DNA from: an uncultured SAR86 cluster bacterium
GTDB lineage: Bacteria > Pseudomonadota > Gammaproteobacteria > Magnimaribacterales > D2472
Direction of reading: 5' to 3'
DNA: 64,000 nt
Assembly (NCBI GenBank): GCA_902513515.1
Contig: CABXNE010000002.1
Coordinates: forward strand, 5,023-69,022
Shown: positions 8,857 to 27,448 of the stretch, piece by piece
How positions within the stretch are numbered: position 1 is the first letter of the stretch
Layout of the letters: the number at the start of each line of letters is the position of its first letter
Program-made: the position numbers and the translations under genes
Notes under the pieces: generated by a model
The model's database searches: none
The model's input: the letters and a program-made list of their open reading frames with translations, nothing else
Told to the model about the DNA's origin: nothing

Positions 8857-8864
8857 CTTAATTC

Positions 8865-10004: not shown

Positions 10005-11086
10005 TAGCCATTCTCCAAGGTAGTAAGTTTTTTAATTTCAACATTTGGTATTGGATGCGTTGTTGCTCCAATCCACCTCAGGAGCATAGCTCCGTTATTG
10101 CGACCTTCAGTTATAAGGTTATTTTTTAAATTAACAGGTAAATGACTAACATTAATAGTGATGGTTTTATCACTATTGAGACTGGCAGAAGATTCATTAA
10201 TGTGAATAGGGTAATGTCGATAGTCTAGTGACTCCATCCAATAATTTTCTAATTGAAAATTCCAATACTCACAATCAGGTATGTCGGTTGTGATTTCCAT
10301 AAACTCATTTTCATCAAAGTCATAATAACCATGAAGGTAGCAAATTTTTGGATCACCGCCAGCCGCTTGAAAAAAAGTTTGATCACCTAATGGTAATTGA
10401 TTTCTATGATTATCTTTAAATTCATGAACCCACTTCAAGAAAGTTGATGCGGTTCCACTGACAAAAGCAAGAGACTGATTTAACTGACTTTCAAGTTTTA
10501 TTGGTGTTAAAAGTTCCGGACTCGCAATTGAGTTGGTAGTTTTTATATTAATTGTTGCATGAGTTTGAGAGATTCTATTTTTATAGGTTTGCCTAACAAT
10601 TAACATATTTGCATTTTCAGGAAGCGATAAAAAATTTTTAGAATTAGTTTCCCCACCAAGATATAAAATAAAATCTCCTGAACTATCAACCGTCATATCC
10701 CTCATATCAATCTCTCCTAGAGAGACCATCGTTCCATCTTTGCTGTATCTATTTTCTTTCAACCCAAAGCTTAAATAGTCTGACTGACCAATATTGCCAT
10801 ACACCTCATAGGTTTGATTTCCATCTATGTTTGCATTTAAGTAAATATTATCTGGGTTATCTGCACCAATTTTTGCTGTTTCATGAGAGAGATTGTAAAA
10901 AGAGGGCGTAGAAGGATTCGAATGCTCCATATTCATCTCCAAAGATAAGCGCATCAACCGCAATAGGTACCTATATCCTTCAGCTTGGTCTGTTTCGCTC
11001 AGAGTAGATTCAGCTTCAATAATTGATCCAACCTCCTTTAGGTTTTCACAAAAAGCATCCCATTTTTCTTTAAATAAATCAGCCAT
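10004..11086 (-). CDS. conserved hypothetical protein (weak, unverified resemblance to DUF1214-type proteins)
   Basis: Long uninterrupted 360-aa ORF with no clashing ORF, translationally coupled to the sulfotransferase. GADNPDNIYL...YEVYG reminded me of DUF1214 proteins, but I cannot verify this. Confidence 0.45.
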   Translation of the reverse strand: MADLFKEKWDAFCENLKEVGSIIEAESTLSETDQAEGYRYLLRLMRLSLEMNMEHSNPSTPSFYNLSHETAKIGADNPDNIYLNANIDGNQTYEVYGNIGQSDYLSFGLKENRYSKDGTMVSLGEIDMRDMTVDSSGDFILYLGGETNSKNFLSLPENANMLIVRQTYKNRISQTHATINIKTTNSIASPELLTPIKLESQLNQSLAFVSGTASTFLKWVHEFKDNHRNQLPLGDQTFFQAAGGDPKICYLHGYYDFDENEFMEITTDIPDCEYWNFQLENYWMESLDYRHYPIHINESSASLNSDKTITINVSHLPVNLKNNLITEGRNNGAMLLRWIGATTHPIPNVEIKKLTTLENG

Positions 11087-11153
11087 ATTTTTTCTTTTTA
11101 ATTGATTAAATTTATATTAAGGTTGATGTTTAATCAATGAATAGACAAATACA

Positions 11154-12224
11154 ATGCCAAAGCCACAAGAGAGAGATTTAGAGCAAACTAAGGTTGTTTT
11201 TACCACTTGGCTTGAGACGCAATTAGATGAGGCTACTAACCTAAAAGTTGAATTGTTAGGAGGTCCTGAGAATACAGGCTTCTCAAATGAGACATTAAGT
11301 TTTAATGTTTCCTATATTTTAGATGACGTTAATATTAAAACTGGGATGGTTCTTAGATTCTATCCAGAAGGTTTCTTTGTATTTCCTGATTACGATATTC
11401 ACAAACAATTTTTGATTATGCAAAAACTTGCTGGTCATGATATTAAAGTTCCTAAAGTTTTATGGTACGAGCCTAGCGAAGAAATTTTTGGCACGTCATT
11501 TTATGTGATGGAAATGGCCAGCGGAGATGCTCCTTCTGATAATCCTCCATTTCATCAAGAGGGATGGGTTGCTGATTCCCCCGAAGATGTTAGAGAGAGA
11601 ATATGGTGGGGCTGGGTTGAGCAGATGGCTAAAATTCATCAAGTTGACACATCGAACGGAGATTTTGAATTTCTTGACAGACCAAAACTTGCAGAAGACT
11701 ATCTTGATCAAGAATTAAATTATTACTTTAATTTTCATGATTGGGCCATGGATGGCGAAGCTCATCCTGTTGCCGATCAAGCACGTGAATGGCTCAAGGC
11801 GAATAAACCAAAACCAGCTCAATCTTCTATTCTTTGGGGAGATTGTAGGTGTGCAAATATTATGTATGACCCTGATGGAAAAGTTTCAGCTGTTTTAGAT
11901 TGGGAGATGGCGGCACTTGGAGATCCTTGTATGGATCTTGCTTGGGGGATAGCTATTGATGATTGCAATTCAAAAGGCGTTAATGTGGAAAGGTTAAGTG
12001 GATTTCCTGGACCGGTAGCGACTATTGCTAAATGGGAGGCTCTAACTGGATTTAGCGCAGATGATTTTGATTACTATTATATTTTGGCGTTATATAAATT
12101 TACCGTAATCATGGTTAAAGTTGTTAGAAAACTGGAACATTACGAAATCATGCCTATGGGGATGAATGCCCACATCAATAATCATGTAACACCCATGCTT
12201 GAGGCAAAGCTTAAGGAACTATAA
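11154..12224 (+). CDS. phosphotransferase-family (APH/choline-kinase-like) protein
   Basis: Kinase-like catalytic region LWGDCRCANIMYD and DWEMAALGDPCMDLAW (Brenner/APH motifs). This family often accompanies acyl-CoA dehydrogenase clusters. Confidence 0.75.
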   Translation: MPKPQERDLEQTKVVFTTWLETQLDEATNLKVELLGGPENTGFSNETLSFNVSYILDDVNIKTGMVLRFYPEGFFVFPDYDIHKQFLIMQKLAGHDIKVPKVLWYEPSEEIFGTSFYVMEMASGDAPSDNPPFHQEGWVADSPEDVRERIWWGWVEQMAKIHQVDTSNGDFEFLDRPKLAEDYLDQELNYYFNFHDWAMDGEAHPVADQAREWLKANKPKPAQSSILWGDCRCANIMYDPDGKVSAVLDWEMAALGDPCMDLAWGIAIDDCNSKGVNVERLSGFPGPVATIAKWEALTGFSADDFDYYYILALYKFTVIMVKVVRKLEHYEIMPMGMNAHINNHVTPMLEAKLKEL

Positions 12225-12226
12225 AA

Positions 12227-13753
12227 ATGGCTATTTTTTCTATCTCTCATTCTGATACTGGTAAAAAAATATTAAGTTTAAACAGTCCTGTTGATCTTTC
12301 TCACATTGACACTTATGAATGCACATCTCCTGAAGAGATTGCAACCATAATGACCCAAGCTAAAGTTGCTCAAAGTGAATGGAAGAAAACAACCTTAAAA
12401 GAAAGAGTTGAATTAATGCACAGAGTTGCTGATGTTGTAATGCAACAACAAGATAGAATCATGGATGTGGTTATGAGAGAAACTGGCAAACCAGAACAAG
12501 AAGCCATGTCTATGGAGGTCTTTTCAGCGATAGATTCCTTGGTGTTTTACGCTAAGAGAGCTCATAAGTGGCTAGCAGATAAAAAAATTAAGATGCATGG
12601 TCCTATGCAGTTTCTTAAAAAAACAATAATCACATACAAGCCAAGAGGGGTAGTAGCTGTAATCACTCCTTGGAATGGCCCATTTATACTTTCCATCAAC
12701 CCAGTCATTCAAGCCATTCTTTGTGGAAACAGCGTAGTGGTAAAGCCATCTGAGGTTACGCCTATGTCTGGAGCATTGGTCCAGGAGATTTTTGCATTAG
12801 CAGAAGCTCCCCAACATTTAATTCAGACTGTGATTGGAGATGGAGAGACGGGCGCTGAATTAATTGATCAGGGCCCAGATAAAGTGTCCTTTACAGGCAG
12901 TGTTGCTACCGGAAAGAAGATTGCTGCAAAGTGTGGTGAAATGCTCATTCCTTATAGCCTCGAATTGGGGGGCAAAGATGCCATGATTGTTTGCTCTGAT
13001 GCAGACATTAAAGATGCTGCAAGTGGAGCAGTTGTTGGTTCATGTATGAATGCTGGCCAGTATTGCTGTGGCACTGAGAGAATTTATGTCATGGATGATG
13101 TTTATGATGAGTTCGTTGATGAAGTTGTCAGCATCACTCAGTCACTCATTCAATCAAATGATTGTAAAGGTGATGTGGGCGCTACATTTTGGGATAAGCA
13201 AATAAACATAATCGAGGATCATGTTAATGATGCTGTTGCTAAAGGAGCCAAGGTATTGGTTGGAGGCAAGAGAAATCCAAATTTTAAAGGTTTATATTTC
13301 GAACCAACAGTTCTTGTTGAAGTTACACATGAAATGAAAATCATGAAAGATGAAACTTTTGGACCAATTATTTCCATTATGAAAGTTCAATCAGAGGATG
13401 AGGCATTAATTTTAGCTAACCAATCTCATTATGGTTTAAATGGAAATGTTTGGACCAAGGATTTAAAAAAAGGTCAAAGATTAGCGAAATCAATTGATAC
13501 AGGAGCCTGTTCTGTTAATGACATGGCAATGAGCTACGGAGTAAATGAAGTCCCATTTGGTGGTGTAAAAGAAAGCGGCTTGGGCGTGGTTAATGGAAAG
13601 GAGGGCTTATTAGCATATGCCCATCCAATGCCAATCATTATTGGTAAGAAATCTGCCTCTGCTTACCCCTATACAGATAAATCATTTGAGCAACTTAAAG
13701 GTGCTTTAAAAATATTTTGGGGTAATAGGCTAGTAAGAAAATTATTTGGTTAA
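12227..13753 (+). CDS. NAD(P)+-dependent aldehyde dehydrogenase
   Basis: FTGSVATGKKI, catalytic-Glu motif LELGGKDA, catalytic Cys context GQYCCGTERIYV, and EETFGP-like DETFGP. Confidence 0.9.
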   Translation: MAIFSISHSDTGKKILSLNSPVDLSHIDTYECTSPEEIATIMTQAKVAQSEWKKTTLKERVELMHRVADVVMQQQDRIMDVVMRETGKPEQEAMSMEVFSAIDSLVFYAKRAHKWLADKKIKMHGPMQFLKKTIITYKPRGVVAVITPWNGPFILSINPVIQAILCGNSVVVKPSEVTPMSGALVQEIFALAEAPQHLIQTVIGDGETGAELIDQGPDKVSFTGSVATGKKIAAKCGEMLIPYSLELGGKDAMIVCSDADIKDAASGAVVGSCMNAGQYCCGTERIYVMDDVYDEFVDEVVSITQSLIQSNDCKGDVGATFWDKQINIIEDHVNDAVAKGAKVLVGGKRNPNFKGLYFEPTVLVEVTHEMKIMKDETFGPIISIMKVQSEDEALILANQSHYGLNGNVWTKDLKKGQRLAKSIDTGACSVNDMAMSYGVNEVPFGGVKESGLGVVNGKEGLLAYAHPMPIIIGKKSASAYPYTDKSFEQLKGALKIFWGNRLVRKLFG

Positions 13754-14520: not shown

Positions 14521-14663
14521 TTTTAGTACTTTTTCAAATTTAGTCTATTTAATTATAGAGTATGTATGATTGATTTATATTGACAAATTTATTCTTACAG
14601 TTACCCATTGATTGGTTGCTGAATTTGTATAATATTTATTACATATTATTCGGGAGGTATTGA

Positions 14664-15296
14664 ATGAAGATAGCTATTCTGGGCGGGACAGGGTCTTTGG
14701 GTAAAGGATTGGGTTCAAGATGGATTAAAGCGGGTCATGAAGTTTTTATTGGGAGTCGTGACTTATTAAAAGCTAAAGATATTGCTGTGCAATTAGGTCT
14801 TGATAGCTCATCTGGAATGCTAAACATTGATGCGGCTAAATCTTGTGAACTTGCATGTTTAACAGTGCCATTTGCTCATCAAGAATCAACTCTTTTAAGC
14901 ATTGAGAACGCTTTGCATAACAAAATTATGGTTGATGCAACTGTTCCCCTTATGCCTCCAAAAGTAATGAGGGTTCAATTACCTGAAGCGGGCTCAGCAG
15001 CATTAAATGCCCAATCAATTCTGGGTGAACATACTACTGTAATATCAGCCTTTCAAAATATTTCTGCTGAATTGCTTCAAACTGATGCAAACATTGATTG
15101 TGATGTATTGGTTGCTGGAGATCTTGTTGATGCAAGAAATACGGTTATTGGCTTAGCATCTGATGCTGGTCTTACTGGATGGCATGCTGGACCACTCTGT
15201 AATTCTGTTGCAGCAGAAGCATTAACCTCAATACTTATTGCAATTAATAAAAAACACTCACTTGCCCATTCAGGTATTAAGATCACAGGCCACTAA
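14664..15296 (+). CDS. fno: NADPH-dependent F420 reductase (F420H2:NADP+ oxidoreductase, Fno/NpdG family)
   Basis: 210 aa. The N-terminal MKIAILGGTGSLGKGLGSRWIKAGHEVFIGSRD is the characteristic Fno/NpdG dinucleotide fold. A strong SD (gggagg) precedes the ATG. It is the first gene of the cof cluster. Confidence 0.8.
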   Translation: MKIAILGGTGSLGKGLGSRWIKAGHEVFIGSRDLLKAKDIAVQLGLDSSSGMLNIDAAKSCELACLTVPFAHQESTLLSIENALHNKIMVDATVPLMPPKVMRVQLPEAGSAALNAQSILGEHTTVISAFQNISAELLQTDANIDCDVLVAGDLVDARNTVIGLASDAGLTGWHAGPLCNSVAAEALTSILIAINKKHSLAHSGIKITGH

Positions 15297-15311
15297 AAAA
15301 AGAGAAATATC

Positions 15312-16073
15312 ATTAGTTCTATAGACCTCATAGCATTAGAGACATTACCCCTTATCCAACCTGGACAAGATTTGTCTAAAGAAATTATTAATGGGATAGA
15401 ATCTGAATCAATTAAAATTGATGATGGAGATGTAATAGCAGTTGCACAAAAAATTATTTCTAAGTCAGAAAATAGATATCTAGATATTTCACAGCTTAGC
15501 CCTTCAGAGGAGGCATTAACTTTATCAAGAATAATTGATAAAGATCCAAAGTTTATTCAAGCAATCCTAAATGAATCAAAGAAGGTAGTTCGCTACAGAA
15601 TGGGAGTATTAATAGTTGAGCACAAGTTAGGATTTATTCATGCGAACGCTGGAATTGACAGGTCTAATACAGATCAAGAAAAAGACATCGTATTATTATT
15701 GCCAGAAAATCCAGACAATTCAGCAAAGATGATTTCAGAATCTTTATCTCAACATTTTCAAAAAAATATATCTGTAATTATTACCGATACCATGGGAAGG
15801 CCTTTTAGAAATGGAATAGTGGGTTTTACTATAGGCAGCCATAATATTGAATGCCTATTGGATGAACGTGGAAAAAATGATCTATTTGGTAATAAACTTA
15901 AAGTTACCCAAATTGGTATTGCTGATGAGTTAGCAGCTGCCGCATCATTGTTAATGGGTCAAGCTGCTCAAAAAAAACCTGTTGTGTTGATCAAAGGTTA
16001 TAAATTTAATCAAAATAATCTTAGTGACTCTCAATCATTAATTCGTAGCGAAGAAGAGGATCTATTCAGATGA
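15312..16073 (+). CDS. cofE: F420-0:gamma-glutamyl ligase CofE (single-domain form); start codon uncertain
   Basis: HANAGIDRSN and ITDTMGRPFRNG are CofE/F420-ligase signatures. The conserved N-terminal strand-loop (IDLIALETLPLIQPGQDL) lies upstream of the track's TTG (15372). That region has no ATG/GTG/TTG, so the ATT at 15312 (or ATC at 15309) is used provisionally. Confidence 0.85.
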   Translation: MSSIDLIALETLPLIQPGQDLSKEIINGIESESIKIDDGDVIAVAQKIISKSENRYLDISQLSPSEEALTLSRIIDKDPKFIQAILNESKKVVRYRMGVLIVEHKLGFIHANAGIDRSNTDQEKDIVLLLPENPDNSAKMISESLSQHFQKNISVIITDTMGRPFRNGIVGFTIGSHNIECLLDERGKNDLFGNKLKVTQIGIADELAAAASLLMGQAAQKKPVVLIKGYKFNQNNLSDSQSLIRSEEEDLFR

Positions 16074-16999
16074 AAAATTATCTTTTACTATGTGGAGGAG
16101 TTGGAGGAGCTAAACTTGCGTTAGGATTTAAAAATTCAATCGATGCAGATAACTTAACCATTGCTGTCAATACTGGAGATGATTTTACTCATCTTGACCT
16201 TAAAATTTGTCCCGATCTTGATACTGTGATGTATACCCTTGCTGGTGAATCAGATCTATCTAAGGGTTGGGGTAGAAAAGATGAATCATGGAATATGCTT
16301 TCAGCATTAGGCGCCATGAAGGGGGAAACTTGGTTTCAACTTGGAGACAAAGATTTAGCAACTCATATCCAAAGAACAAATTTAATTAAATCTGGCCAAT
16401 CTTTAACTCAAGCAACTCATAATTTATGTGAGTCATTTAATCTTCCAAAGTATATTTTTCCAATGAGCAATCAACCTGTTGAGACCTATATTCAAACAAA
16501 AAATAGGTTGATTTCATTTCAAGAGTATTTTGTAAAATTGAAATGCGAGCCACCAGTAACTGATTTTGTTTTTAAGGGGCTTGATAAAGCTGAATTTAAT
16601 CAAGATATAGATTTATCAAATTTTGATGAAATTATTGTCTGCCCATCTAATCCTTATGTAAGTATAAACCCAATGCTTCAGTTATCGTCTCTGAAAAATT
16701 ATTTACAGGATTTTCCAGAAAAAGTTAGTGTTATAAGTCCTATCGTTAATGCACAATCATTGAAAGGTCCGACTGCAAAAATGATGAATGAGCTTGGTTA
16801 TGAAGTAAGTGTTATTACAATTGCTAAGTTTTATAAAACTTATTCTAAAAGAATTTTTATAGATTCATTAGATTTGAATGAGTCTAGTAAGTTAAATGAA
16901 TTAGGATATGAAGTGCATAATAATAATTTAATCATGAATAGCACTAACTCAAAAAATGCACTCGCCAAGGCAATAATTCACCAGCTTGAATCAAAATAA
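16070..16999 (+). CDS. cofD: 2-phospho-L-lactate (LPPG):FO transferase CofD
   Basis: N-terminal LCGGVGGAKLALG plus NTGDDF...LDLKICPDLDTVMYTLAG match the CofD family. ATGA overlap with cofE. Confidence 0.9.
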   Translation: MKNYLLLCGGVGGAKLALGFKNSIDADNLTIAVNTGDDFTHLDLKICPDLDTVMYTLAGESDLSKGWGRKDESWNMLSALGAMKGETWFQLGDKDLATHIQRTNLIKSGQSLTQATHNLCESFNLPKYIFPMSNQPVETYIQTKNRLISFQEYFVKLKCEPPVTDFVFKGLDKAEFNQDIDLSNFDEIIVCPSNPYVSINPMLQLSSLKNYLQDFPEKVSVISPIVNAQSLKGPTAKMMNELGYEVSVITIAKFYKTYSKRIFIDSLDLNESSKLNELGYEVHNNNLIMNSTNSKNALAKAIIHQLESK

Positions 17000-17575
17000 A
17001 TGAATGTATCTGCATTTATACCGATTAAAAAATTTTCAACTTCAAAGAAGCGACTATCAAATATTGTTAGTTCATCTGAGCGAGAGAATCTAGCTGTCTT
17101 AATGGCAACGAAAACAATAGATACTTTATTTAATTCTAAGATATGCAACTCAATAACAGTTGTTACAAATGATAAAAATTTACATTTAAATAATTCAAAG
17201 TCATATTTTACAAAATCATTATTGAATGAAGGTTTAAATGAGGCTATAAATTCTCATGCTAAAAATGACATTATTTTAATCATGCATGCCGATCTTCCGA
17301 GAATTAATGAATTAGATCTTCAGGAGCTAACAAAAATTTTTGATGTCAAAAAAGTTAGCATTATTTCAGATCTTTTAAAGCAAGGAACAAATTGCTTAAT
17401 GTTTAATTCGTCGGTCAATTTCAAGCTTAAATTTGGTATAGATAGCTACAATCTTTTTATAAATGAATTCAAAAATAATGAAATAAATTATCAAGATGTT
17501 TGCATAGAAAGCCTTCAGGATGACCTTGACTCCGAGGAAGATTACTTCAAACTAATTAAATATATTGAGAGTTAG
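17000..17575 (+). CDS. cofC: phospho-lactate/phosphoenolpyruvate guanylyltransferase CofC/FbiD
   Basis: N-terminal AFIPIKKFSTSKKRLS (family pattern iPvK...aKsRL), about 190 aa, positioned between cofD and fbiC. Confidence 0.7.
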   Translation: MNVSAFIPIKKFSTSKKRLSNIVSSSERENLAVLMATKTIDTLFNSKICNSITVVTNDKNLHLNNSKSYFTKSLLNEGLNEAINSHAKNDIILIMHADLPRINELDLQELTKIFDVKKVSIISDLLKQGTNCLMFNSSVNFKLKFGIDSYNLFINEFKNNEINYQDVCIESLQDDLDSEEDYFKLIKYIES

Positions 17576-19994
17576 CTCGTTGAAGATTCAAGAACAATCA
17601 AATTATACTTTGCAGCAGTTAATTGCTACTGGATCTATAGATTTTTCTGCATTAACCTCTTTGGCTAATATTTGTTTATCTGATGCTCTAATTAAAGCAT
17701 CCCATGAGAAGAAAAAAGCGCATTTTAAAAATTTATTAACCTACTCGCCAAAGGTTTTCATCCCTTTAACATTTTTATGTCGCGATGTTTGTCATTACTG
17801 TACTTTTGCTCAAACCCCTAAAAAAGTTGAATCTCCATACTTATCAATTGATCAAGTTGTTTCAATTGCAAAAGAGGGTGAGGTTAATGGTTGTTATGAA
17901 GCTTTATTTACACTTGGTGATAAACCCGAATTAAGATACAAAGCTGCTAGAGATTGGCTTTCAATGAATGGCTTCAAAACAACAAATGATTACCTGGCTG
18001 CTTGCGCAGAAGCTGTATTGAATGAGACCTCTTTAATCCCTCATTTAAATCCAGGTTGCTTAACTTCTGATGAAATCAAAAAACTCAAGCCTTTAAGCGG
18101 CTCAATGGGTCTAATGGTTGAATCTCTCTCATCACGGCTTACTGAAAAAGGCCAGCCGCACTATGGATCTCCTGATAAGGATCCTATATTTAGAATGCAG
18201 ACCTTAGAAGAGGCTGGAAGACAAAAAGTTCCATTTACCACTGGAATATTAATTGGAATAGGTGAAACGAGGTTAGAACGTTTAGAGTCATTACACAAAA
18301 TAGCTGAATTACATAATACCTATAATCATATCCAAGAAGTTATAGTTCAAAACTTTAGAGCAAAGCCTAATACATTGATGGCAAATGCAATCGAGCCATC
18401 ATTTGATGAGCTTATGTGGACAATAGCTATGGCTAGATTAATTCTGCCTGGCGACATTAGCTTACAAGTTCCACCCAATCTAAACGCAGAGAATATTAAA
18501 CAATTAACTTTGTCTGGGATAAATGATTTTGGAGGAATATCTCCAGTTACCAAGGATTATGTTAATCCAGAAGCACCTTGGCCTGAAATAGAAAGATTAA
18601 ATAAAATAGCCTCATTCTCAAATCAATCATTAAAACCAAGGGCAACATTGTATCCTAGATATTTTTCCGACCTGAAGACCTTCTCAACACATGAAATATC
18701 CTCCAAGCTTCTTCAAATAACAGATTCTCAGTCACTTATAAGGTCTGACCATTGGAGATCAGGAATTAGTAAAAATATACCTTCATACCCAGAATCTATT
18801 TTTAATTCTAATATACGCCAGTCGATCCATGATGTTGAGAACAATCCATCTATTGAGAATATCCAAGAGCTATTAGAGGTGTCTGATAATGATTTTAAAT
18901 ATATTACTGAATATGCCAATGATGTTAAATCACAAATACATGGATCTGATATTAGTTTTGTTGTGAATAGAAATATCAACTATACAAACATATGCTCTTT
19001 TAAATGTAATTTTTGTGCATTCTCAAAAGGTAGGGGGCATGATGATTTAAGAGGCAAGCCATATAACATTTCTCATGAAGAGATCATTCGAAGAACAAAT
19101 GAAGCTATTGATAGAGGTGCGACAGAAGTCTGTTTGCAGGGCGGTATTCATCCAAAATATTCTGGTGAAACTTATCTCGAAATTGTAAGGGCAATTAGAT
19201 CTGCTTCTCGATCAGTGCATATTCATGCTTTTTCCCCTCTAGAAATTGATCACGGTAGAAAAACTTTAAATATTTCTGCTAAAGAATTTCTTATAGAGCT
19301 TAAAAACGCAGGTCTTAATTCACTTCCCGGAACAGCCGCTGAGATTCTGCATGATGATATTAGATCAATTATTTGCCCTGATAAACTCACAAGCAAAAAG
19401 TGGATTGAGATTATCAAAACTGCTCATTCTGTAGGGTTGCCTACTACATCTACCATGATGTTTGGTCATATCGAGAGCACTCATCATATCGCCCACCATT
19501 TAATGAAGCTTTTAACCCTCCAGATGAGCACGAACGGGTTAACTGAATTCGTTCCCCTACCTTTTGTTGCTGATGAAGCGCCTATTTTTAGAAGAGGTCA
19601 AGCAAGGCCTGGGCCTACTTTCAAGGAGACAATTTTAGTGCACTCCGTTGCGAGGATTCTTTTTAATGGAAGCATAAATAACATTCAAGGCTCGTGGGTT
19701 AAAATGGGATTACCAGGTCTAAAATATCTTTTATCTTCTGGAATTAATGACATTGGGGGTGTTTTGATGAATGAATCTATAACAAGGTCAGCTGGGGCTT
19801 CATTTGGCCAGGAGCTTAATTTGGATGATGTTGTATGTATTGCAGAAGAGCTAGACTTAAATTTAAAACAAAGAAATACTCTTTATGACCCCTTAAAAAA
19901 TGATCTTCAAAACTTAATTAATTTACAATCAATTTCATTGATCCCAATAATTAATGAATATAATCAACCTAAACAAATAATAAATACCTTATGA
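17565..19994 (+). CDS. fbiC: FO synthase, fused CofG+CofH (FbiC)
   Basis: 809 aa with two radical-SAM CxxxCxxC motifs (CRDVCHYCTF near residue 72; CSFKCNFCAF near residue 477), the architecture of fused FbiC. Confidence 0.95.
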   Translation: MRVSSLKIQEQSNYTLQQLIATGSIDFSALTSLANICLSDALIKASHEKKKAHFKNLLTYSPKVFIPLTFLCRDVCHYCTFAQTPKKVESPYLSIDQVVSIAKEGEVNGCYEALFTLGDKPELRYKAARDWLSMNGFKTTNDYLAACAEAVLNETSLIPHLNPGCLTSDEIKKLKPLSGSMGLMVESLSSRLTEKGQPHYGSPDKDPIFRMQTLEEAGRQKVPFTTGILIGIGETRLERLESLHKIAELHNTYNHIQEVIVQNFRAKPNTLMANAIEPSFDELMWTIAMARLILPGDISLQVPPNLNAENIKQLTLSGINDFGGISPVTKDYVNPEAPWPEIERLNKIASFSNQSLKPRATLYPRYFSDLKTFSTHEISSKLLQITDSQSLIRSDHWRSGISKNIPSYPESIFNSNIRQSIHDVENNPSIENIQELLEVSDNDFKYITEYANDVKSQIHGSDISFVVNRNINYTNICSFKCNFCAFSKGRGHDDLRGKPYNISHEEIIRRTNEAIDRGATEVCLQGGIHPKYSGETYLEIVRAIRSASRSVHIHAFSPLEIDHGRKTLNISAKEFLIELKNAGLNSLPGTAAEILHDDIRSIICPDKLTSKKWIEIIKTAHSVGLPTTSTMMFGHIESTHHIAHHLMKLLTLQMSTNGLTEFVPLPFVADEAPIFRRGQARPGPTFKETILVHSVARILFNGSINNIQGSWVKMGLPGLKYLLSSGINDIGGVLMNESITRSAGASFGQELNLDDVVCIAEELDLNLKQRNTLYDPLKNDLQNLINLQSISLIPIINEYNQPKQIINTL

Positions 19995-20872
19995 GCAAAA
20001 AACTTAAACACCTTTCAGTTATTTTTATTGGTTACATAGCATGTATTTATTCCATGCAACTTACTTGGAATTCCTTTCCAGAGTCATCCTTGGTACTTAA
20101 AGTTTTAATATGTCATATTGAGGCCACAATTTTTATTTACCTGTTAAGTGTTATTTTCAATAATTCAAGTTGGTATGATGCCTTTTGGTCAGTCATACCA
20201 GTTGTTTTAACTATAATGTGTTGGGCAGATATCTCTGCTGGTGGAGATGTTCAAAGAGCATTTTTGATGCATGCATGTTTATTATTTTGGGCTATTAGAT
20301 TAACTTATAACTGGATGAGATCTTGGGATGGTTTTTCCCATGAAGATTGGCGATACATCATGATGAAGGGAAAAACATATAATAAATTTCAATACTTCAC
20401 AGTAGATTTTGGTTCCATACACCTTATTCCAACTCTTTGTGTTTATATGGCACTGCTGCCAATGATTTACGCTCTTGCTTACCCCGGTGATGAATTAAAT
20501 AATTTAGATATGCTGGCTACTTTTTTGGCTATTTCGGCAGTGATAATTCAGATTATCTCAGATCAGCAAATGTATAATTTTAGAAAAAATCTTACTGAAC
20601 CTAAAACTATGAAATCTGGTTTATGGTATTACTCACGTCATCCAAACTACTTTGGAGAAATATTATTCTGGTTCAGCCTATTTGTTTTTGCTTTAGCATC
20701 AAATCTATCATTTGCTTGGTTATTGATTGGCTCTGTCATCATGTATGCTTTAATAGCTTTTGCATCAGTTTCAATGATGGATAAACGATCATTGGAAAGA
20801 CGTTCAGATTTTAAGGAATACATGGATTCAACCCCAGCAATTTTCATTAATATTTTTAAAAAGGTTAGATAA
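19991..20872 (+). CDS. DUF1295 / steroid 5-alpha-reductase-like polytopic membrane protein
   Basis: Multi-TM 293-aa protein with the family C-terminal signature YYSRHPNYFGEILFW. Its ATG overlaps the fbiC stop (ATGA). Confidence 0.8.
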   Translation: MSKKLKHLSVIFIGYIACIYSMQLTWNSFPESSLVLKVLICHIEATIFIYLLSVIFNNSSWYDAFWSVIPVVLTIMCWADISAGGDVQRAFLMHACLLFWAIRLTYNWMRSWDGFSHEDWRYIMMKGKTYNKFQYFTVDFGSIHLIPTLCVYMALLPMIYALAYPGDELNNLDMLATFLAISAVIIQIISDQQMYNFRKNLTEPKTMKSGLWYYSRHPNYFGEILFWFSLFVFALASNLSFAWLLIGSVIMYALIAFASVSMMDKRSLERRSDFKEYMDSTPAIFINIFKKVR

Positions 20873-22173
20873 TGAGAAAGTTATATATATTAATCGCTTT
20901 TATGATAGTAATAGCTCCTATTTCAGCAGATGATTTAAAAAACCAGTTAGACAGAGATCTTCAGGCAGTGATGACAAAAGTTACTGATTGGAGGCATCAT
21001 TTTCATGAATATCCTGAGCTCTCAAACAGGGAATACAAAACACAAGAATCTATAGTTGAAGCATTAACTGAGATGGGTCTTGAGCCTAATACAGAATTTG
21101 GTATCACAGGAGTAACGGCATTTATTAGAGGTCAAAATCCAGGCCCTCTAATTGCTCTTAGGGCTGACATTGATGGATTGCCAGTTACTGAGAAACTTAA
21201 TCTACCTTTTTCTTCAAAAGTCAAAACTACATATCAGGGTAATGAAGTTGGTGTTATGCATGCATGCGGTCATGATGCTCATATAGCAGTGTTGCTTGGG
21301 GTCGCTAGCTTCCTTTCAAGAAATACTGAAAAGTTAAATGGCGATATTTTATTAATATTTCAACCTGCTGAAGAAGGCGCTCCTGAAGGAGAAGACGGTG
21401 GCGCTGAATTAATGCTTAAACAGGGTCTTTTTGAGGCTGAAAAACCAGATGCTATTTTTGGAATGCACGTATCAAATTTTAAAAATGGTCAAATATGGAC
21501 TAAACCTGGACCTATTATGGCTTCGGCAGAAGCTTTTAGAATAATTGTTCAAGGTCAGCAAACTCATGGTTCAAGACCTTGGAGTGGAGTTGATCCTATT
21601 ATTGCAGCATCAGATATCGCTACAACTTTACAAACAATTGTAAGCAGAAGATTAAATCTTTTAGATAGTCAGGCAGTAGTCACTGTTGGAATTATGAAAG
21701 CTGGAACAAGAAATAACATCATACCTGCCTCAGCAATGTTAGAGGGTACTATAAGAACTTTTAAAAACTCTTATGCAGATCAAATACGAGATGAAATTAA
21801 ACTTATTGCTGAAAATGTAGCCGCTGCTCATCATGCTACTGCTGTGGCTGAATTTAAAGTTTATGGAGGCTATCCAGTAACTTTTAATGATGAAAATCTT
21901 GCTAAAAAATACTCCTCTTCATTAATAGAAGCCACCAATGGAGATTATTTTGAAGCAAAAGTTCCAAGGACCGGTGCTGAGGATTTTTCTTTTTATGCTC
22001 AACAAGTTCCAGGTTTATTCTTTTTTCTTGGAGTAAATGCTCCAGGTAACGATGACAGTCCGACCAATCATTCACCTTATTTTTATGTTGATGATTCGGC
22101 GCTAGGTAATGGCGTTAAAGCATTTATCAATCTTGTCGAGGATTTCTCCGAGGATTATAATAAAAGCAATTAA
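20872..22173 (+). CDS. secreted M20-family amidohydrolase (M20D aminoacylase/hippurate-hydrolase-like)
   Basis: N-terminal signal-like MRKLYILIAFMIVIAPISA. Metal-binding MHACGHDAH; QPAEEG; C-terminal HSPYF. The start overlaps the DUF1295 stop (TAATG). Confidence 0.85.
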   Translation: MRKLYILIAFMIVIAPISADDLKNQLDRDLQAVMTKVTDWRHHFHEYPELSNREYKTQESIVEALTEMGLEPNTEFGITGVTAFIRGQNPGPLIALRADIDGLPVTEKLNLPFSSKVKTTYQGNEVGVMHACGHDAHIAVLLGVASFLSRNTEKLNGDILLIFQPAEEGAPEGEDGGAELMLKQGLFEAEKPDAIFGMHVSNFKNGQIWTKPGPIMASAEAFRIIVQGQQTHGSRPWSGVDPIIAASDIATTLQTIVSRRLNLLDSQAVVTVGIMKAGTRNNIIPASAMLEGTIRTFKNSYADQIRDEIKLIAENVAAAHHATAVAEFKVYGGYPVTFNDENLAKKYSSSLIEATNGDYFEAKVPRTGAEDFSFYAQQVPGLFFFLGVNAPGNDDSPTNHSPYFYVDDSALGNGVKAFINLVEDFSEDYNKSN

Positions 22174-22208: not shown

Positions 22209-22559
22209 ATGAAAATTTATCTGCTGTCATTTTTACTTCTTAATATTTCAGTTGATTTATTCAGTCAAGAAATTTATAAAAAAAAATGCATCTCACAATC
22301 TGGTAAATCTATTTACGAAATTGCTCTTCTAGCAAAAAAAGAGGGCATGGGAGAGATTAGGCTTGAATTTAATGGCGAAGTTAATCTTTACTCTGCAAAA
22401 GTGCTTATTATAAATACTAATAATATTGTAGGTGTTGCAAAATTTAAATCCTCATTAACTGGACAAATCGAAGGCTCGCCTTGGGTATTCACATATTACT
22501 TTGATACCGACAAATTTATTGATGATGGTCGTCTTGAAGCTAACTGCTCTGAAATTTAG
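22209..22559 (+). CDS. hypothetical secreted protein
   Basis: 116 aa with a signal-like N-terminus (MKIYLLSFLLLNISVDLFS) and Cys near each end. No family recognised. Confidence 0.45.
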   Translation: MKIYLLSFLLLNISVDLFSQEIYKKKCISQSGKSIYEIALLAKKEGMGEIRLEFNGEVNLYSAKVLIINTNNIVGVAKFKSSLTGQIEGSPWVFTYYFDTDKFIDDGRLEANCSEI

Positions 22560-22752: not shown

Positions 22753-23883
22753 TTATTCTTCTGGAAGCAATGAATTTAATCGCTCAACTGAATCAAGATA
22801 TTCATTAATAATTCTATAAATTACATCTTTTACTGATTCAATTTGTTTTACTTGACCGATAACTTGTCCAGCAGCATTAAACGATACATCTTGTGTATTT
22901 CCAGAACCAGCATATATAGAAGTTCGTCTCATTGCATCAAAAGTAATCATGCCTTGAAGTGGCATTGGTAATGGATCTGGGTTTTCAGGATTTTCCCATG
23001 CTTCTGTCCATTTATTTTTTAACATTCGAGCAGGTTTTCCCGTCCAAGCCTTGCTTCTGATCGTATCTTCGCTTGTTGCATTTAAATAAGAGTCTTTTTC
23101 AGCAGGCTGAGCTGCAGCTTCTTCAACGGCAAGCCACAATGAACCACACCAAACTCCTTGAGCTCCTGTGGACATAGCTGCAGCCATTTGTCGGCCATTT
23201 CCGATTCCGCCAGCAGCAAGGACCGGCAAGCCATCTACAGCATCAACAATTTGAGGCCACAAAACAATACTTCCTATTTCACCAGTATGACCGCCACCTT
23301 CACCACCTTGTGCAATGATAAAATCAAGTCCTGCTTCTTTATGAGCTAAAGCCTGCTTAATTTTTCCGCATAAAGCACCAATTAAAACACCTTTATCTTG
23401 AATTTTTTTAATCATATCGGCAGGAGGAGTACCTAATGCGTTAGCAATTAATTTTACATTTGGGTGTTTTAAAGCTTCCTTTATTTGAGGTTCAGCTGTT
23501 GCCTCTGTCCATCCCAAGAGCCCTCCTTTTGGACCATTAGTTTCCGGTGCTTCTGGGACACCATTATCAGACAAGAGACCCTCAACAAATTCTCTATGAC
23601 CTTCAGGTATCATTTTTTGTAATGATTGTAATAATTTCTCAGGGTCTGTCTCATCCATACCTTCATATTTTTGTGGAATCACCGTATCTACGCCATACGG
23701 ATAATCTCCAATATGTTCATCGATCCAATCTAGCTCTTCTTTCAACTGCTCTGGTGAAAACCCAACAGCACCAAGCACGCCAATTCCACCAGCTTTACTA
23801 ACCGCAACAACAACATCTCTGCAATGAGTAAAAGCAAAAATAGGATATTCAATACCAAGTTTTTTACAAATATCAGTTTTCAT
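22753..23883 (-). CDS. nitronate monooxygenase / 2-nitropropane dioxygenase-like FMN oxidoreductase (NMO family)
   Basis: YPIFAFTHCRDV, GGIGVLGA, and IAQGGEGGGHTG are typical of the NMO/FabK-like TIM-barrel family. Confidence 0.85.
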   Translation of the reverse strand: MKTDICKKLGIEYPIFAFTHCRDVVVAVSKAGGIGVLGAVGFSPEQLKEELDWIDEHIGDYPYGVDTVIPQKYEGMDETDPEKLLQSLQKMIPEGHREFVEGLLSDNGVPEAPETNGPKGGLLGWTEATAEPQIKEALKHPNVKLIANALGTPPADMIKKIQDKGVLIGALCGKIKQALAHKEAGLDFIIAQGGEGGGHTGEIGSIVLWPQIVDAVDGLPVLAAGGIGNGRQMAAAMSTGAQGVWCGSLWLAVEEAAAQPAEKDSYLNATSEDTIRSKAWTGKPARMLKNKWTEAWENPENPDPLPMPLQGMITFDAMRRTSIYAGSGNTQDVSFNAAGQVIGQVKQIESVKDVIYRIINEYLDSVERLNSLLPEE

Positions 23884-23897
23884 TTATTCATTCATTT

Positions 23898-23965
23898 TTT
23901 ACAAAATTAGATTATAGACATTAATGAAAATAATATGGGGGTATTAACTGCTAAAATTTTGTAAA
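23898..23965. promoter_or_regulatory. paired 11-bp inverted motif TTTACAAAATT / AATTTTGTAAA in the divergent NMO / KstD-like promoter region (candidate operator pair)
   Basis: Perfect 11-bp arms at 23898-23908 and 23955-23965. Read toward each divergent gene, the copies extend to TTTTGTAAAnAATGA. Function is unknown. Confidence 0.3.
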
Positions 23966-24055
23966 TAATGATAAAGATAGATAACAATTTTTTAAAAAAA
24001 TTCCCTATGGGTTATAGTGAATTAGTTAAAATTTAAAGAAAAATTTATAAATATT

Positions 24056-25765
24056 ATGAAATGGGATTATGAATTTGATGTAGTCGTAATTGGTTCTGGA
24101 AACGGAGCCTTAACATCTGCTTTATGTAGTCACGATGGTGGTGCAAAAACTTTGGTTATTGAAAAAAGCACTCAATTTGGTGGAACCTCTGCTACCTCTG
24201 GTGGAGGTGTATGGATTCCTAATAACAGGTATGCAAAAGCTGAAAATGTTGATGACTCTAATCAAGATGCGAGAGACTATATAAATAGCGTTTCACCTGA
24301 AGGAAAAATTAAAGATGAGCTAGTGGAAACTTATCTTTCTGAAGGCCCTAAAATGATTGATTATCTTCATGAAAATTCACAAGTTAAGTATAGAAATTTA
24401 GCTCATTATCCAGACTACTTTCCAGATAATCCTGGTGGAAAAGCAGGGAATAGGTCCATGGAACCTGAGCCAATCAAAGGAACTGAACTTGGAGACGATC
24501 TTCAGAAACTCAGGGAACAGCATCCGCAAACCGCATTTACTATGGGACCAATCAATATGAATTTTACTCAAGTAGAAGGCCAGTTATTGTTAGGCGCACT
24601 TCCAGGGTGGAAATCTCTCTTTGCAAAACTATTCACTAAATATATTTTAGATATATCCATGAGGGTTAAATGGGGTTGGAAAGATAGAAGGTTGACTATG
24701 GGCAATGCAGGTGTGGCTCGATTAATTTTATCCCTCAAAGATAGAAATGTAGTTTTATGGACTGAAACTACTATGACTGATCTCATCGATGAAAATGGCT
24801 CAGTAATTGGTATTAAAGCTACTAAAAATAATATTGAGATAAACATTAAAGCAAATAAAGGTGTCATTCTTGCTTCTGGTGGATTTGAAAAAGATCAAAG
24901 TTTGAGAGAAAAATATTTACCTCAGCCTACTAATATAGAGTGGAGTGCTGCCAATATTTATAATACAGGCGATGCATTAAAAGCTGCTTTAAAATTAGGA
25001 GCTGATACTCATCAAATGGATACAGGTTGGTGGTCTACTGTTATGAAAGTACCAGGACAAGATAAAGGTTGGCTATCAATGGTAGATAAATCAATGCCTG
25101 GAAATTTTACCGTCAATAAAAATGGTGAAAGATTTTCAAATGAATCCCAAAATTATGTCAGCTTTGTAAATGATATGTTTGATAAGTATGCGGAGGGAAA
25201 TCCCTGTGCTCCATGTTATATGATTTTTGATAGCACATTTAGAAAAAATCGACCATGCGGACCTCTTCTTCAAGCATCTATGCAGCCTGATTCATCTGTT
25301 CCTAAGGATTGGTGGACACCATCTTTTTTATCAAAGGGTGAGACATTAGAGGAACTAGCTGAAGTTGCTGGCATTGATGTTGAAGGTCTTTTAGCAACAC
25401 AGGCAAAAGTTAATGAATATGCTGCATCAGGCAAAGACCTTGATCTTCAACGTGGTGATAGTGTTTATGATAGGTATTACGGCGATCCATCAGTTACACC
25501 AAATCCATGTCTTGCTCCTATAGAAACTGGACCCTTTTATTGTATGGTTCTATATCCTGGTGAAATGGGTACTGCGGGCGGTCTAGTAATAGATTCAAAT
25601 GCAAGAGTCATAAACAAAGAAGGTAAAGCGATACCAGGACTTTATGCGTGTGGAAATTGCTCAACAGCGTTGTTACCTACATATCCTGGCCCTGGCTCAA
25701 CTCTTGGTCCAGCCATGACTTTTGGTTACTTGGCTGCAAAACACATTACTGGTTCAAATTTTTAA
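24056..25765 (+). CDS. FAD-dependent 3-oxosteroid 1-dehydrogenase (KstD)-like flavoprotein (FAD_binding_2 family)
   Basis: N-terminal FDVVVIGSGNGALTSA...GGTSATSGG dinucleotide fold and C-terminal GLYACGNCS...YPGPGSTLGPAMTFGY, as in KstD/fumarate-reductase-type flavoproteins. Confidence 0.75.
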   Translation: MKWDYEFDVVVIGSGNGALTSALCSHDGGAKTLVIEKSTQFGGTSATSGGGVWIPNNRYAKAENVDDSNQDARDYINSVSPEGKIKDELVETYLSEGPKMIDYLHENSQVKYRNLAHYPDYFPDNPGGKAGNRSMEPEPIKGTELGDDLQKLREQHPQTAFTMGPINMNFTQVEGQLLLGALPGWKSLFAKLFTKYILDISMRVKWGWKDRRLTMGNAGVARLILSLKDRNVVLWTETTMTDLIDENGSVIGIKATKNNIEINIKANKGVILASGGFEKDQSLREKYLPQPTNIEWSAANIYNTGDALKAALKLGADTHQMDTGWWSTVMKVPGQDKGWLSMVDKSMPGNFTVNKNGERFSNESQNYVSFVNDMFDKYAEGNPCAPCYMIFDSTFRKNRPCGPLLQASMQPDSSVPKDWWTPSFLSKGETLEELAEVAGIDVEGLLATQAKVNEYAASGKDLDLQRGDSVYDRYYGDPSVTPNPCLAPIETGPFYCMVLYPGEMGTAGGLVIDSNARVINKEGKAIPGLYACGNCSTALLPTYPGPGSTLGPAMTFGYLAAKHITGSNF

Positions 25766-25767
25766 CT

Positions 25768-26520
25768 ATGGATTTCTCTAATAAAACAGCATTAATTACA
25801 GGCTCCGGACAAGGTGTTGGAGAGGGTATTGCTCGAGCGATTGCTTCATATGGAGGAAACGTGAGCTTGGTTGGTAGAACTCTTTCAAAAGTTGAATCGG
25901 TTGCTGATCAAATAAATCATGACGGTGGGTCAGCCATAGCTATTGAATGCGATGTTAAATGTAATGAATCAATTAACAAATCTATTAAAGCCACACTATC
26001 AAAGTTTAATTCTTTAAATATTTTGGTAAACAATGCTCAAGAAGTTCCATTAGGAAATATTTTAGATGTAACAGACGAATCATTTATAAATGGATGGGAT
26101 TCTGGGCCTCTGGCAACATTTCGCTTCATGAAGGCTTGTCACCCTTATCTAAAAGGAGGTGGAAAAGTGATTAATCTAGCAAGCTCCTCTGCTTTAAGAC
26201 CTGATTCAAAATCTTACGGTGCTTATGCAGCTGTAAAAGAGTCAATTCGCTCTTTATCGAGGGCAGCTGCAGTCGAGTGGGGGCCGGACAATATTTTAGT
26301 AAATTGTATAATGCCTCTCGCCAAGTCAACCGGAATGGACTGGTGGATGAATGAGCATCCAGATGAAGCTAACGAATTTCTTAAAACCATCCCATTAGGC
26401 AGGGTGGGTGAATGCAAAGATGATATTGGGGAGGCCGTTTGTCATATTCTATCTGATGGCATGAATTACATTACCGGATCAACTATCATGCTTGATGGGG
26501 GTCAAGCATATCTAAGATAA
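25768..26520 (+). CDS. short-chain dehydrogenase/reductase (SDR)
   Basis: MDFSNKTALITGSGQGVGEG Rossmann start, NNAQ, and YAAVKES (YxxxK). The track's upstream extension from 25648 overlaps the KstD-like gene and looks spurious. Confidence 0.9.
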   Translation: MDFSNKTALITGSGQGVGEGIARAIASYGGNVSLVGRTLSKVESVADQINHDGGSAIAIECDVKCNESINKSIKATLSKFNSLNILVNNAQEVPLGNILDVTDESFINGWDSGPLATFRFMKACHPYLKGGGKVINLASSSALRPDSKSYGAYAAVKESIRSLSRAAAVEWGPDNILVNCIMPLAKSTGMDWWMNEHPDEANEFLKTIPLGRVGECKDDIGEAVCHILSDGMNYITGSTIMLDGGQAYLR

Positions 26521-26525
26521 CTAGC

Positions 26526-27011
26526 ATGGATAAACTGCAAAAATTAATTGATATAGAAGAGATTAAAAATCTCAAGCATAGATATTTTAGGGCGATAGAT
26601 ATGGCTGATTTTGATTTACTCGATAATGTATTTTCACAAGATATAACAATTGATTATCGAGGTGGTACCTATAGATGGGAATCTGAGGGCAAAGAGACTA
26701 TCAAAGAAAGCTTAATTCATGCATTTCATAATCAGACTGCTGCCATGCATACTGCCCATCATCCAGAAATTGAAATTCTTTCAGAGACTGAGGCTACTGG
26801 GAAATGGTATCTTCAAGATATTTTCTACAATTTTGATTTAGCTACCGTTACTCAAGGCACGGCATTATATGAAGATAGGTACATTAAAACTAATGATCAA
26901 TGGTTAATTAAGCATTCTGAATACGATCGTATATGGGAACAAGTATCGCCCATTAATCCCGATGACAAATTTACTAAAATTCTTTTAAAAGACAAGGGAA
27001 TTAAAAAATAG
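26526..27011 (+). CDS. NTF2-fold SnoaL_4-like protein
   Basis: 161 aa. LIDIEEIKNLKHRYFRAIDMADFDLLDNVFSQD is typical of the SnoaL_4/BaiE-like NTF2 subfamily. Confidence 0.65.
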   Translation: MDKLQKLIDIEEIKNLKHRYFRAIDMADFDLLDNVFSQDITIDYRGGTYRWESEGKETIKESLIHAFHNQTAAMHTAHHPEIEILSETEATGKWYLQDIFYNFDLATVTQGTALYEDRYIKTNDQWLIKHSEYDRIWEQVSPINPDDKFTKILLKDKGIKK

Positions 27012-27019
27012 GAATAACT

Positions 27020-27448
27020 ATGAAAGAAATGGTTCAATCAGCGCTAGATAATTATGTCTTAGCATACAAAAATAATGATAAAGCTTTATTCAGAAGCCTT
27101 TGGGATGATAAGGCTGTATTTGAAGATCCTGTAGGTGCAGAGCCTTGTAATGGAATTGAAGCGATATGTGCTTTTTGGGATTTTGGACATAGTGATGGAA
27201 TGGAGATAAACCCTACAAATGTTGAAACAGTGATTTGTTCTAATGAAGGTATCCTAAAAGCTGTTATGGAGGTTAGAAATATTAATGATAATTCTGGAAT
27301 GGATATTTCAATTGTAGATCACTTTATTATTAACGAAAGTGGAAAAATTACGAGTGGTCGAGCTTTTTGGAATGAATCGTCTATTTCACAGCCTGATGAT
27401 GTTAGCTTAATTGATATCAATGTTGATGATTTTAAAGATAGGGGTTAA
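27020..27448 (+). CDS. NTF2-fold ketosteroid-isomerase-like protein
   Basis: 142 aa. YVLAYKNNDKALFRSLWDDKAVFEDPVG follows the ketosteroid-isomerase-related/SnoaL N-terminal pattern. Confidence 0.6.
   Translation: MKEMVQSALDNYVLAYKNNDKALFRSLWDDKAVFEDPVGAEPCNGIEAICAFWDFGHSDGMEINPTNVETVICSNEGILKAVMEVRNINDNSGMDISIVDHFIINESGKITSGRAFWNESSISQPDDVSLIDINVDDFKDRG

Follow-up and report, generated by a model that had tools for sequence, protein, structure and literature searches.

A DUF1295 membrane-protein gene and an M20 amidohydrolase gene as a lineage-specific extension of the predicted F420 operon of SAR86 bacteria

Seven open reading frames (ORFs) follow one another on the plus strand of a contig from an uncultured SAR86 cluster bacterium (CABXNE010000002.1, of which we analysed one stretch of 64,000 nucleotides, hereafter the window), in the order npdG-cofE-cofD-cofC-fbiC-DUF1295-M20 at 14664–22173 (Table 1). 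The window is AT-rich (~35% G+C) and densely coding (~94%), and profile matches indicate that the F420 operon of SAR86, which is widely distributed, is complete and includes an NADPH:F420 oxidoreductase of its own; at its 3' end stand genes for a DUF1295 membrane protein and an M20 amidohydrolase. Comparison of related loci shows that the DUF1295–M20 linkage extends the operon in this lineage alone and is conserved there, a previously unreported arrangement of ordinary genes; full-text literature searches returned no paper tying SAR86 to F420 biosynthesis. In a scan of one genome per species, the closest relatives of FbiC, and the only close ones, came from SAR86 AG-447-M16 (86% identity) and FRAM18_bin297 (69%), the next-best matches being from Dehalococcoidia and Nitrosopumilaceae at ~44%. 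The operon itself lies on very many marine contigs, the linked DUF1295 protein (P0027) being listed in 251 collection blocks.

The two 3' genes are joined to fbiC, and to each other, by stop/start overlaps that the initial annotation had pointed out and that can be read directly in the sequence: the ATG of DUF1295 (19991–19993) overlaps the in-frame TGA of fbiC (19992–19994) by 4 nt, and the ATG of M20 (20872–20874) shares 1 nt with the TAA of DUF1295 (20870–20872).

Table 1 Genes, junctions, signals and protein motifs of the seven-gene unit (window positions)
Feature	Position	Strand	Evidence
npdG, NADPH-dependent F420 reductase (Fno), first gene of unit	14664..15296	+	TIGR01915 176.3 bits, cut-off 149.8; PF03807
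cofE, F420-0:gamma-glutamyl ligase, stand-alone, without nitroreductase domain	15372..16073	+	TIGR01916 249.5 bits, cut-off 180.65; PF01996
cofD, 2-phospho-L-lactate transferase	16070..16999	+	TIGR01819 268.4 bits, cut-off 257.45
cofC, guanylyltransferase	17000..17575	+	PF01983; TIGR03552 104.1 bits, cut-off 105
fbiC (fused CofG-CofH, bifunctional CofGH), FO synthase	17565..19994	+	TIGR03550 480.4 bits, TIGR03551 493.7 bits
DUF1295 membrane protein, 293 aa	19991..20872	+	PF06966 E 5e-43
M20D-type amidohydrolase/aminoacylase, 433 aa	20872..22173	+	Peptidase_M20 + M20_dimer; TIGR01891 326.9 bits, cut-off 153.75
ATGA stop/start overlap fbiC/DUF1295, no Shine-Dalgarno-like sequence upstream	19991..19994	+	sequence; -4 geometry in most SAR86 lineages
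TAATG stop/start overlap DUF1295/M20, purine-rich AAAGG ~9 nt upstream	20870..20874	+	sequence
Promoter-like region and ribosome-binding site of unit	14580..14657	+	alignment of eight SAR86 lineages
DUF1295 motifs, N-terminal to central	NSSWYD 20162-20179; FWAIRLTYNW 20285-20314; HEDWRY 20339-20356	+	invariant columns
DUF1295 motifs, C-terminal	SDQQMYNFRK 20558-20587; SRHPNYFGEILFW 20633-20671; MMDKRS 20774-20791	+	invariant columns
Predicted Sec signal peptide of M20, MRKLYILIAFMIVIAPISA, cleavage before DD	20872..20928	+	pattern conserved in 14 lineages
M20 metal-site motifs	HACGHD 21259-21276; QPAEEG 21361-21378; FGMHV 21457-21471; TNHSPYF 22063-22083	+	alignment

The gene order holds in every SAR86 lineage that we sampled. 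DUF1295 homologues picked at 85%, 71%, 70%, 55%, 53% and 49% identity all lie between fbiC and M20, as do 14 of the 14 operon-type DUF1295 loci of a metagenome scan, and wherever flanking sequence is present at operon-type loci fbiC stands upstream and M20 downstream. The same order recurs in both SAR86 genomes reached by the fbiC-based scan (L012 and L013), which together form the whole of the unbiased fbiC-based SAR86 sample; the homologue lists of M20 and of cofC consist of near-identical SAR86 sequences (at least 83% and at least 74% identity, respectively) and add no deeper F420-centred sampling. The survey of gene neighbourhoods that the initial annotation had proposed thus finds the linkage conserved among relatives, in SAR86 only. 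Identity to locus L008 is 55% for DUF1295 and 66% for M20, as against 54% for CofD and 38% for CofC; DUF1295 and M20, no less conserved than the F420 enzymes, are therefore working genes. Two loci depart from the common surroundings. In L007 everything downstream of M20 differs, and in L008 the divergent upstream SDR gene is gone and the aldehyde dehydrogenase gene abuts npdG, 6 nt before it on the same strand; the seven-gene block is intact in both. On the 405-kb contig of L007, from the Joint Genome Institute (5607–12184), frameshifts interrupt or shorten each of cofE, fbiC and M20 with synteny intact, which looks like sequencing error rather than a set of pseudogenes.

This conservation is shared with the neighbourhood. 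The entire 20-kb region, from the APH and Aldedh genes through to NMO, KstD-like, SDR, SnoaL and pdxJ, is syntenic across the same SAR86 lineages, and at the same depth, so the fbiC-DUF1295-M20 adjacency is not better conserved than its background. Two ORFs of the window match no Pfam or NCBIfam model. One, of 360 aa (10004–11086, minus strand), lies beside the APH gene in all SAR86 loci at 57–88% identity and adjoins a sulfotransferase gene; the other, of 116 aa with a signal-like N-terminus (22209–22559), begins 35 nt past M20, and related SAR86 loci have a ~60-aa ORF on the opposite strand in its place.

Nor is tight packing unusual here: 15 of the 40 same-strand neighbouring ORF pairs in the window overlap (38%) and 22 of the 40 have a gap of at most 5 nt, the overlapping pairs including the functionally unrelated pdxJ and glutaredoxin genes. 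A stop/start overlap alone is no more than chance in this genome, and with overlap as the norm ‘translational coupling’ carries little functional information. Conservation of the junction geometry does exceed chance: across SAR86 the gap between fbiC and DUF1295 stays within -4 to +6 nt and that between DUF1295 and M20 within -4 to +3 nt, though fbiC has diverged to 56% identity and DUF1295 to 49%. Of the coupling claimed in the initial annotation, the overlaps are thus real and conserved in SAR86, while the functional meaning read into them does not follow.

Beyond SAR86 the linkage with cof/fbi genes disappears, with no recurrence in the independent F420 producers sampled: at none of 78 loci with fbiC/CofH-like genes of other taxa does a DUF1295 or M20 homologue lie within 10 kb. 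The ~70 non-operon DUF1295 loci, SAR86-like paralogues included, carry neither M20 nor F420 genes; they comprise one Bacteroidota-like locus (L011), a DUF1295-PsiE type of ~30% G+C (L094 and ~40 others), an HSP20-SDR-DUF1295 type (L096–L098) and ~20 high-G+C loci. SAR86-like low-G+C contigs (L094–L098, L107–L150) hold at least two more DUF1295 paralogue types, HSP20-SDR-DUF1295 and DUF1295-PsiE.

One contig, L093, has the order HSP20-SDR-DUF1295-M20, with the DUF1295–M20 pair behind an SDR gene instead of fbiC. Its DUF1295 gene (1576–2439) has a sharp breakpoint at about nt 2237, in the region of the SRHPNYFGE motif: up to that point the HSP20 and SDR genes and two thirds of a paralogous DUF1295 gene match L096, a locus without M20, at 85–95% identity, and the 3' end of DUF1295 together with M20 is ~75% identical to the operon type of the window. 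No second contig with this arrangement was found among 89 relatives. We therefore discount L093 as proof of a DUF1295–M20 pair without F420 genes, given the mosaic breakpoint inside DUF1295 and the lack of a second witness; its sequence suggests either a chimeric assembly or a one-off recombinant between paralogues.

The family assignment of the membrane protein proved secure. PF06966 matches at 147.6 bits (gathering threshold 20.4), residues 50–281 covering profile positions 2–235 of 235, and the invariant motifs of that family—NSSxYD, FWAxRLTxNW, EDxRY and SRHPNYxGE—are all present; among PF06966 proteins, this orthologue group alone has been seen joined to an F420 operon and M20. Steroid_dh (PF02544) scores 25.0 bits (cut-off 22.6) over residues 174–249 only (profile 43–120 of 150), and the ICMT family of Pfam reaches 20.8 bits over residues 192–241, below its cut-off of 24. 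An AlphaFold model built with 53 homologues (predicted local distance difference test 95.8) has eight long helices, and by a positive-inside count Lys and Arg cluster at the N-terminus, in loops 112–131 and 200–217 and in the C-terminal tail, with none in the other loops. We infer from these predictions eight transmembrane helices with both termini in the cytoplasm, which would place HEDWRY, SRHPNYFGE and MMDKRS on the cytoplasmic face.

Structural comparison points to reductases. The best Foldseek matches in the Protein Data Bank (PDB) are SRD5A2, a chloroplast complex subunit, delta14-sterol reductase, PbSRD5A and ICMT (E 0.02–0.4; TM-score 0.34–0.49), and a profile of the DUF1295 family finds only three entries at E < 1, all NADPH-dependent reductases (SRD5A2, delta14-sterol reductase and PbSRD5A; E 0.025–0.25). 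That profile aligns D191, R198, N219 and E223 of the DUF1295 protein with D164, R171, N193 and E197 of SRD5A2, which we take to be NADPH-contacting residues. With SRD5A2 (7BW1), PbSRD5A (7C83) and MaSR1 (4QUV), its top structural and profile matches, the protein shares a C-terminal cofactor module, but the likeness is marginal and limited to its last third, its predicted helices number eight rather than seven, and no equivalent of the catalytic Glu/Tyr pair of SRD5A2 could be mapped. Membership of the reductase superfamily is therefore supported, and reductase chemistry, by analogy, is likely. C=C reduction is something we can only infer, because the clan also holds S-adenosylmethionine (SAM)-dependent methyltransferases and the ICMT profile falls just under threshold. 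Like the membrane methyltransferases ICMT and PEMT, the DUF1295 protein has an RHPxY...GE motif, and ICMT (5VG9) is its fifth Foldseek match; unlike them, it scores below the Pfam cut-off, and ICMT is absent from the PDB profile matches at E up to 10, which makes a SAM-dependent activity appear less likely. Of the earlier proposal of a C=C reductase drawing on F420H2 or NADPH, the superfamily stands, and the use of F420H2 has no precedent known to us among its members. No characterized DUF1295 protein was found in the literature, but the fungal membrane protein UsgR, which is DUF1295-like, has ene-reductase activity in vivo (PMC8597850).

The second protein was assigned correctly to the M20 family: it matches Peptidase_M20, M20_dimer (PF07687, residues 222–319) and TIGR01891 ‘amidohydrolase’. 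Its metal-site motifs (HACGHD 130–135, QPAEEG 164–169, FGMHV 196–200 and TNHSPYF 398–404) align with those of 1YSJ, 1XMB and 4EWT, and its PDB matches are YxeP (1e-66), ILL2 (2e-59), 4EWT (8e-59) and 6SLF (1e-56), from which we classify it as an M20D aminoacylase-type enzyme. It shares with YxeP (1YSJ), ILL2 (1XMB), 4EWT from S. aureus and 6SLF, a Corynebacterium N-acyl-glutamine aminoacylase, the HACGHD / PAEE / GxH / C-terminal His metal site, and with these and Sulfolobus CpsA a catalytic domain bearing an inserted dimerization/lid domain. It reaches no equivalog cut-off (CpsA 351.2 against 500, DoeB2 269 against 550). M20D enzymes hydrolyse N-acyl-L-amino acids. The analogy once drawn with carboxypeptidase G2, an M20A enzyme, does not survive: the two share the M20 clan fold and the hydrolysis of an amide bond to a C-terminal amino acid, but the SAR86 protein carries the M20D signature and belongs to another subfamily, scores 24.3 bits against a cut-off of 349 with the glutamate carboxypeptidase model NF004788, and finds no carboxypeptidase G2 chain past 1e-10 in the PDB search.

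The signal-like N-terminus of the M20 protein, noted at the outset, is corroborated by comparison. Over 14 SAR86 lineages the first ~19–21 residues vary in sequence and keep a Sec-type pattern—a basic start, a hydrophobic core of 12–15 residues and small residues at -3 and -1—and the mature part that follows is highly conserved. Unlike the SAR86 enzyme with its cleavable-looking signal peptide, the solved M20D homologues are cytoplasmic and lack the extension, aligning only from query residue 24–39 on. The protein is thus probably periplasmic, though the N-terminus may instead be an uncleaved membrane anchor. An exported enzyme cannot trim the tails of cytoplasmic F420 or supply the pathway with glutamate, and neither of these proposed roles is supported.

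The sequence upstream of npdG probably serves the whole unit. The 143-nt spacer holds blocks conserved in eight SAR86 lineages: TTGACA (14580–14585), ACCCATTGATTGG (14603–14615), an invariant TATAAT (14628–14633) that lies 42 nt past TTGACA, and GGGAGG (14652–14657), the window's version of a strong AGGAG ribosome-binding site present in all eight. The middle block, ACCCATTGATTGG, could be a -35 element or an operator; our consensus promoter scan requires hexamers 16–18 nt apart and hence leaves this region uncalled. A sequence scan found no terminator-like site in 19000–22173 and so none between fbiC and the stop of M20, leaving the linkage unbroken on this count. A single transcript would therefore run from the promoter-like region to the end of M20, and npdG-to-M20 is probably one transcription unit. 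DUF1295 has no Shine-Dalgarno-like sequence and M20 only the weak AAAGG; lacking a ribosome-binding site of its own, DUF1295 is probably translated by ribosomes that terminate at the stop of fbiC and begin again at the ATG overlapping it (termination–reinitiation), and M20 would be translated from the TAATG overlap with help from its weak purine-rich site.

That neither family is part of the known F420 pathway, as the initial annotation stated, agrees with a 2021 review of F420, which contains neither ‘peptidase’ nor ‘hydrolyse’ and in which the dehydro-F420 reductase is FbiB-C/FbiE only. FbiB-C/FbiE catalyses the one C=C reduction known in F420 biosynthesis, and its gene commonly lies among the F420 genes or is fused to them; mycobacteria and Thermomicrobia use phosphoenolpyruvate (PEP) for F420 (PMC8498797). 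No nitroreductase-family FbiE/FbiB-C gene was found in the unit or within 10 kb of it at SAR86 loci L001–L013. CofC has Gly, not Ser, at the residue deciding the use of 3-phosphoglycerate (3-PG), the query residues K10, G146 and S149 corresponding, in a weak alignment, to K17, G163 and S166 of Mycobacterium tuberculosis (Mtb) FbiD; residue roles are established for CofC/FbiD, with Ser required for 3-PG use (PMC8764529). The SAR86 enzyme would then be of the 2-phospho-L-lactate (2-PL)/PEP type and not the 3-PG type, two substrates, 2-PL and PEP, whose use in vivo CofC assays cannot tell apart (PMC8764529). If SAR86 uses PEP, a dehydro-F420-0 C=C reductase is missing from the unit. The FbiB C-terminal domain and FbiE, unlike DUF1295, are soluble flavin mononucleotide-binding enzymes of the nitroreductase family with an unrelated fold, and an equivalence between the two is pure hypothesis; that DUF1295 is a non-orthologous dehydro-F420-0 reductase, or more broadly a membrane NAD(P)H:deazaflavin hydride-transfer enzyme, strikes us as very improbable.

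Two other genes were considered in connection with the F420 side chain. In archaea the route calls for a lactaldehyde dehydrogenase, CofA, and for a lactate kinase, CofB, that is yet to be identified; an APH-family kinase and an aldehyde dehydrogenase are encoded directly upstream of the operon (11154–13753; 2114–4698 in L008), syntenic with it in all SAR86 loci. As candidates for CofB and CofA the two are no more than a lead: the dehydrogenase is not specifically CofA-like, scoring 298 bits against a cut-off of 650, and the pair occurs at no other fbiC locus.

A Pfam scan of the window, which covered all ORFs of at least 120 aa save three already identified from related loci, found neither a nitroreductase nor an F420-dependent enzyme of the luciferase-like or FDOR type. 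Steroid-catabolism-like genes are dense at 6116–8856, 22753–27448 and 53913–63982: they encode a Rieske oxygenase resembling KshA, a flavoprotein resembling KstD (526 bits, sub-threshold, with the model for 3-oxosteroid 1-dehydrogenase), two SnoaL proteins, a CoA ligase, an enoyl-CoA hydratase and acyl-CoA dehydrogenases, together with thiolase-like and ChsH2/DUF35 proteins, a P450 and MaoC-like hydratases.

How, then, might DUF1295 and M20 relate to the F420 genes that precede them? With confidence a little better than even, we read them as passengers that are co-transcribed with the operon—a membrane reductase of the NAD(P)H type and a hydrolase of N-acyl-amino acids or peptides in the periplasm—kept in place by genome compaction and inheritance. 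DUF1295 would draw on NAD(P)H for the reduction of a C=C bond, its substrate being hydrophobic and soluble in the membrane, and M20 would hydrolyse N-acyl-L-amino acids or short blocked peptides in the periplasm, the latter an activity that would suit a scavenging heterotroph; the export of M20 and the cytoplasmic basic loops and motifs of DUF1295 put the two in different compartments, which favours this reading. F420-related roles, for their part, find no support in location, in subfamily or in comparative data. Several observations weigh on the other side. Both synteny breakpoints, in L007 and L008, lie beyond the seven-gene block, where selection for keeping it together would put them, and joint membership of a conserved and compact operon has long served, imperfectly, to predict shared function; with no nitroreductase-type reductase and a CofC of apparent 2-PL/PEP type, a C=C reductase-like gene could fill a gap in the pathway; and F420-n ends in a glutamate that in chemical terms is an N-acyl-L-glutamate, within the M20D substrate class. 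On these grounds DUF1295 might reduce the enolpyruvyl C=C of dehydro-F420-0, or act in hydride transfer at the membrane, with NAD(P)H or F420H2 on one side and a deazaflavin or lipid substrate on the other, while M20 removed terminal glutamates outside the cytoplasm as a form of salvage. In favour of such a direct role are also the tight junctions of the block across SAR86, the stand-alone CofE, the lack of a nitroreductase-family gene within 10 kb at any SAR86 locus, a CofC with Gly at the Mtb-FbiD G163 position and so not of the 3-PG type that needs no reduction, the NADPH-dependent C=C reductases nearest to DUF1295 among solved structures, the ene-reductase activity of UsgR, and the hydrolysis by M20D enzymes of N-acyl-L-amino acids, relatives of aminobenzoyl-glutamate included. 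We nevertheless think it quite unlikely: the linkage is found at none of the 78 fbiC/CofH-like loci of other taxa, many organisms and loci that lack F420 genes have a DUF1295 gene, a hydrophilic anion is an awkward substrate for a membrane-embedded pocket, F420 is synthesized in the cytoplasm and M20 exported, salvage has less of a rationale because SAR86 synthesizes FO and F420 itself, no relative in the superfamily is known to us to use F420H2, and, the assays of CofC being blind to 2-PL versus PEP, a reductase may not be needed at all.

Shared regulation offers a different account of the linkage, in which all seven products are needed under one condition, such as the breakdown of hydrophobic polycyclic compounds or of lipids, or light or photo-oxidative stress in surface water, and share no substrate. 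FO is known as an antenna of photolyases, there is one conserved promoter-like region for the block, and genes resembling those of steroid catabolism (KshA-like, KstD-like, SnoaL, P450, ChsH/Ltp2-like hydratase, thiolase and DUF35 proteins, acyl-CoA dehydrogenases and CoA ligase) flank the operon on both sides, though the synteny of this island could be simple inheritance. Elsewhere, DUF1295 genes occur with DUF2177 and DegV near heliorhodopsins (bioRxiv 2021.02.16.431466), and one is induced by singlet oxygen in Chlamydomonas (PMC4067076), but these associations are of other DUF1295 subgroups. With no regulator or operator identified at the locus and no F420-dependent oxidoreductase of the luciferase-like or FDOR families in the 64-kb window, we hold such a common regime to be possible but rather doubtful. 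The two genes might, finally, be adjacent and not co-expressed, owing their transcription mainly to a promoter within the 3' end of fbiC, with the overlaps a by-product of compaction. The only promoter-like match before DUF1295 is TTTACA-18-AATAAT (10/12) at 19922–19951, 40 nt before the start, in the stretch encoding the poorly conserved C-terminal tail of FbiC. We rejected it as a conserved internal promoter: its -35-like hexamer is lost in most other lineages, no promoter-like motif at this place is conserved across them, and in this AT-rich DNA such matches are no commoner than in shuffled sequence (38 against 44.2 expected). The initial annotation had named an internal promoter or a terminator as a feature that would separate the genes, and neither a terminator-like site nor a conserved promoter-like motif appeared. 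As DUF1295 also lacks a ribosome-binding site, fitting reinitiation after fbiC, separate expression seems highly improbable.

If DUF1295 and M20 are passengers, the locus is a cautionary case: in streamlined marine genomes overlap and adjacency are background and cannot assign function alone. If the link is real, it would give a first function to DUF1295, a large membrane family found from bacteria to plants, and would fill a gap in the finishing of the F420 side chain in Gram-negative bacteria with a stand-alone CofE; were DUF1295 a deazaflavin reductase, it would represent a new variant of an F420 biosynthesis step in one of the ocean's most abundant heterotrophs. Either way, SAR86, a dominant heterotroph of the surface ocean, appears from its genes to carry a complete and widely distributed F420 operon.

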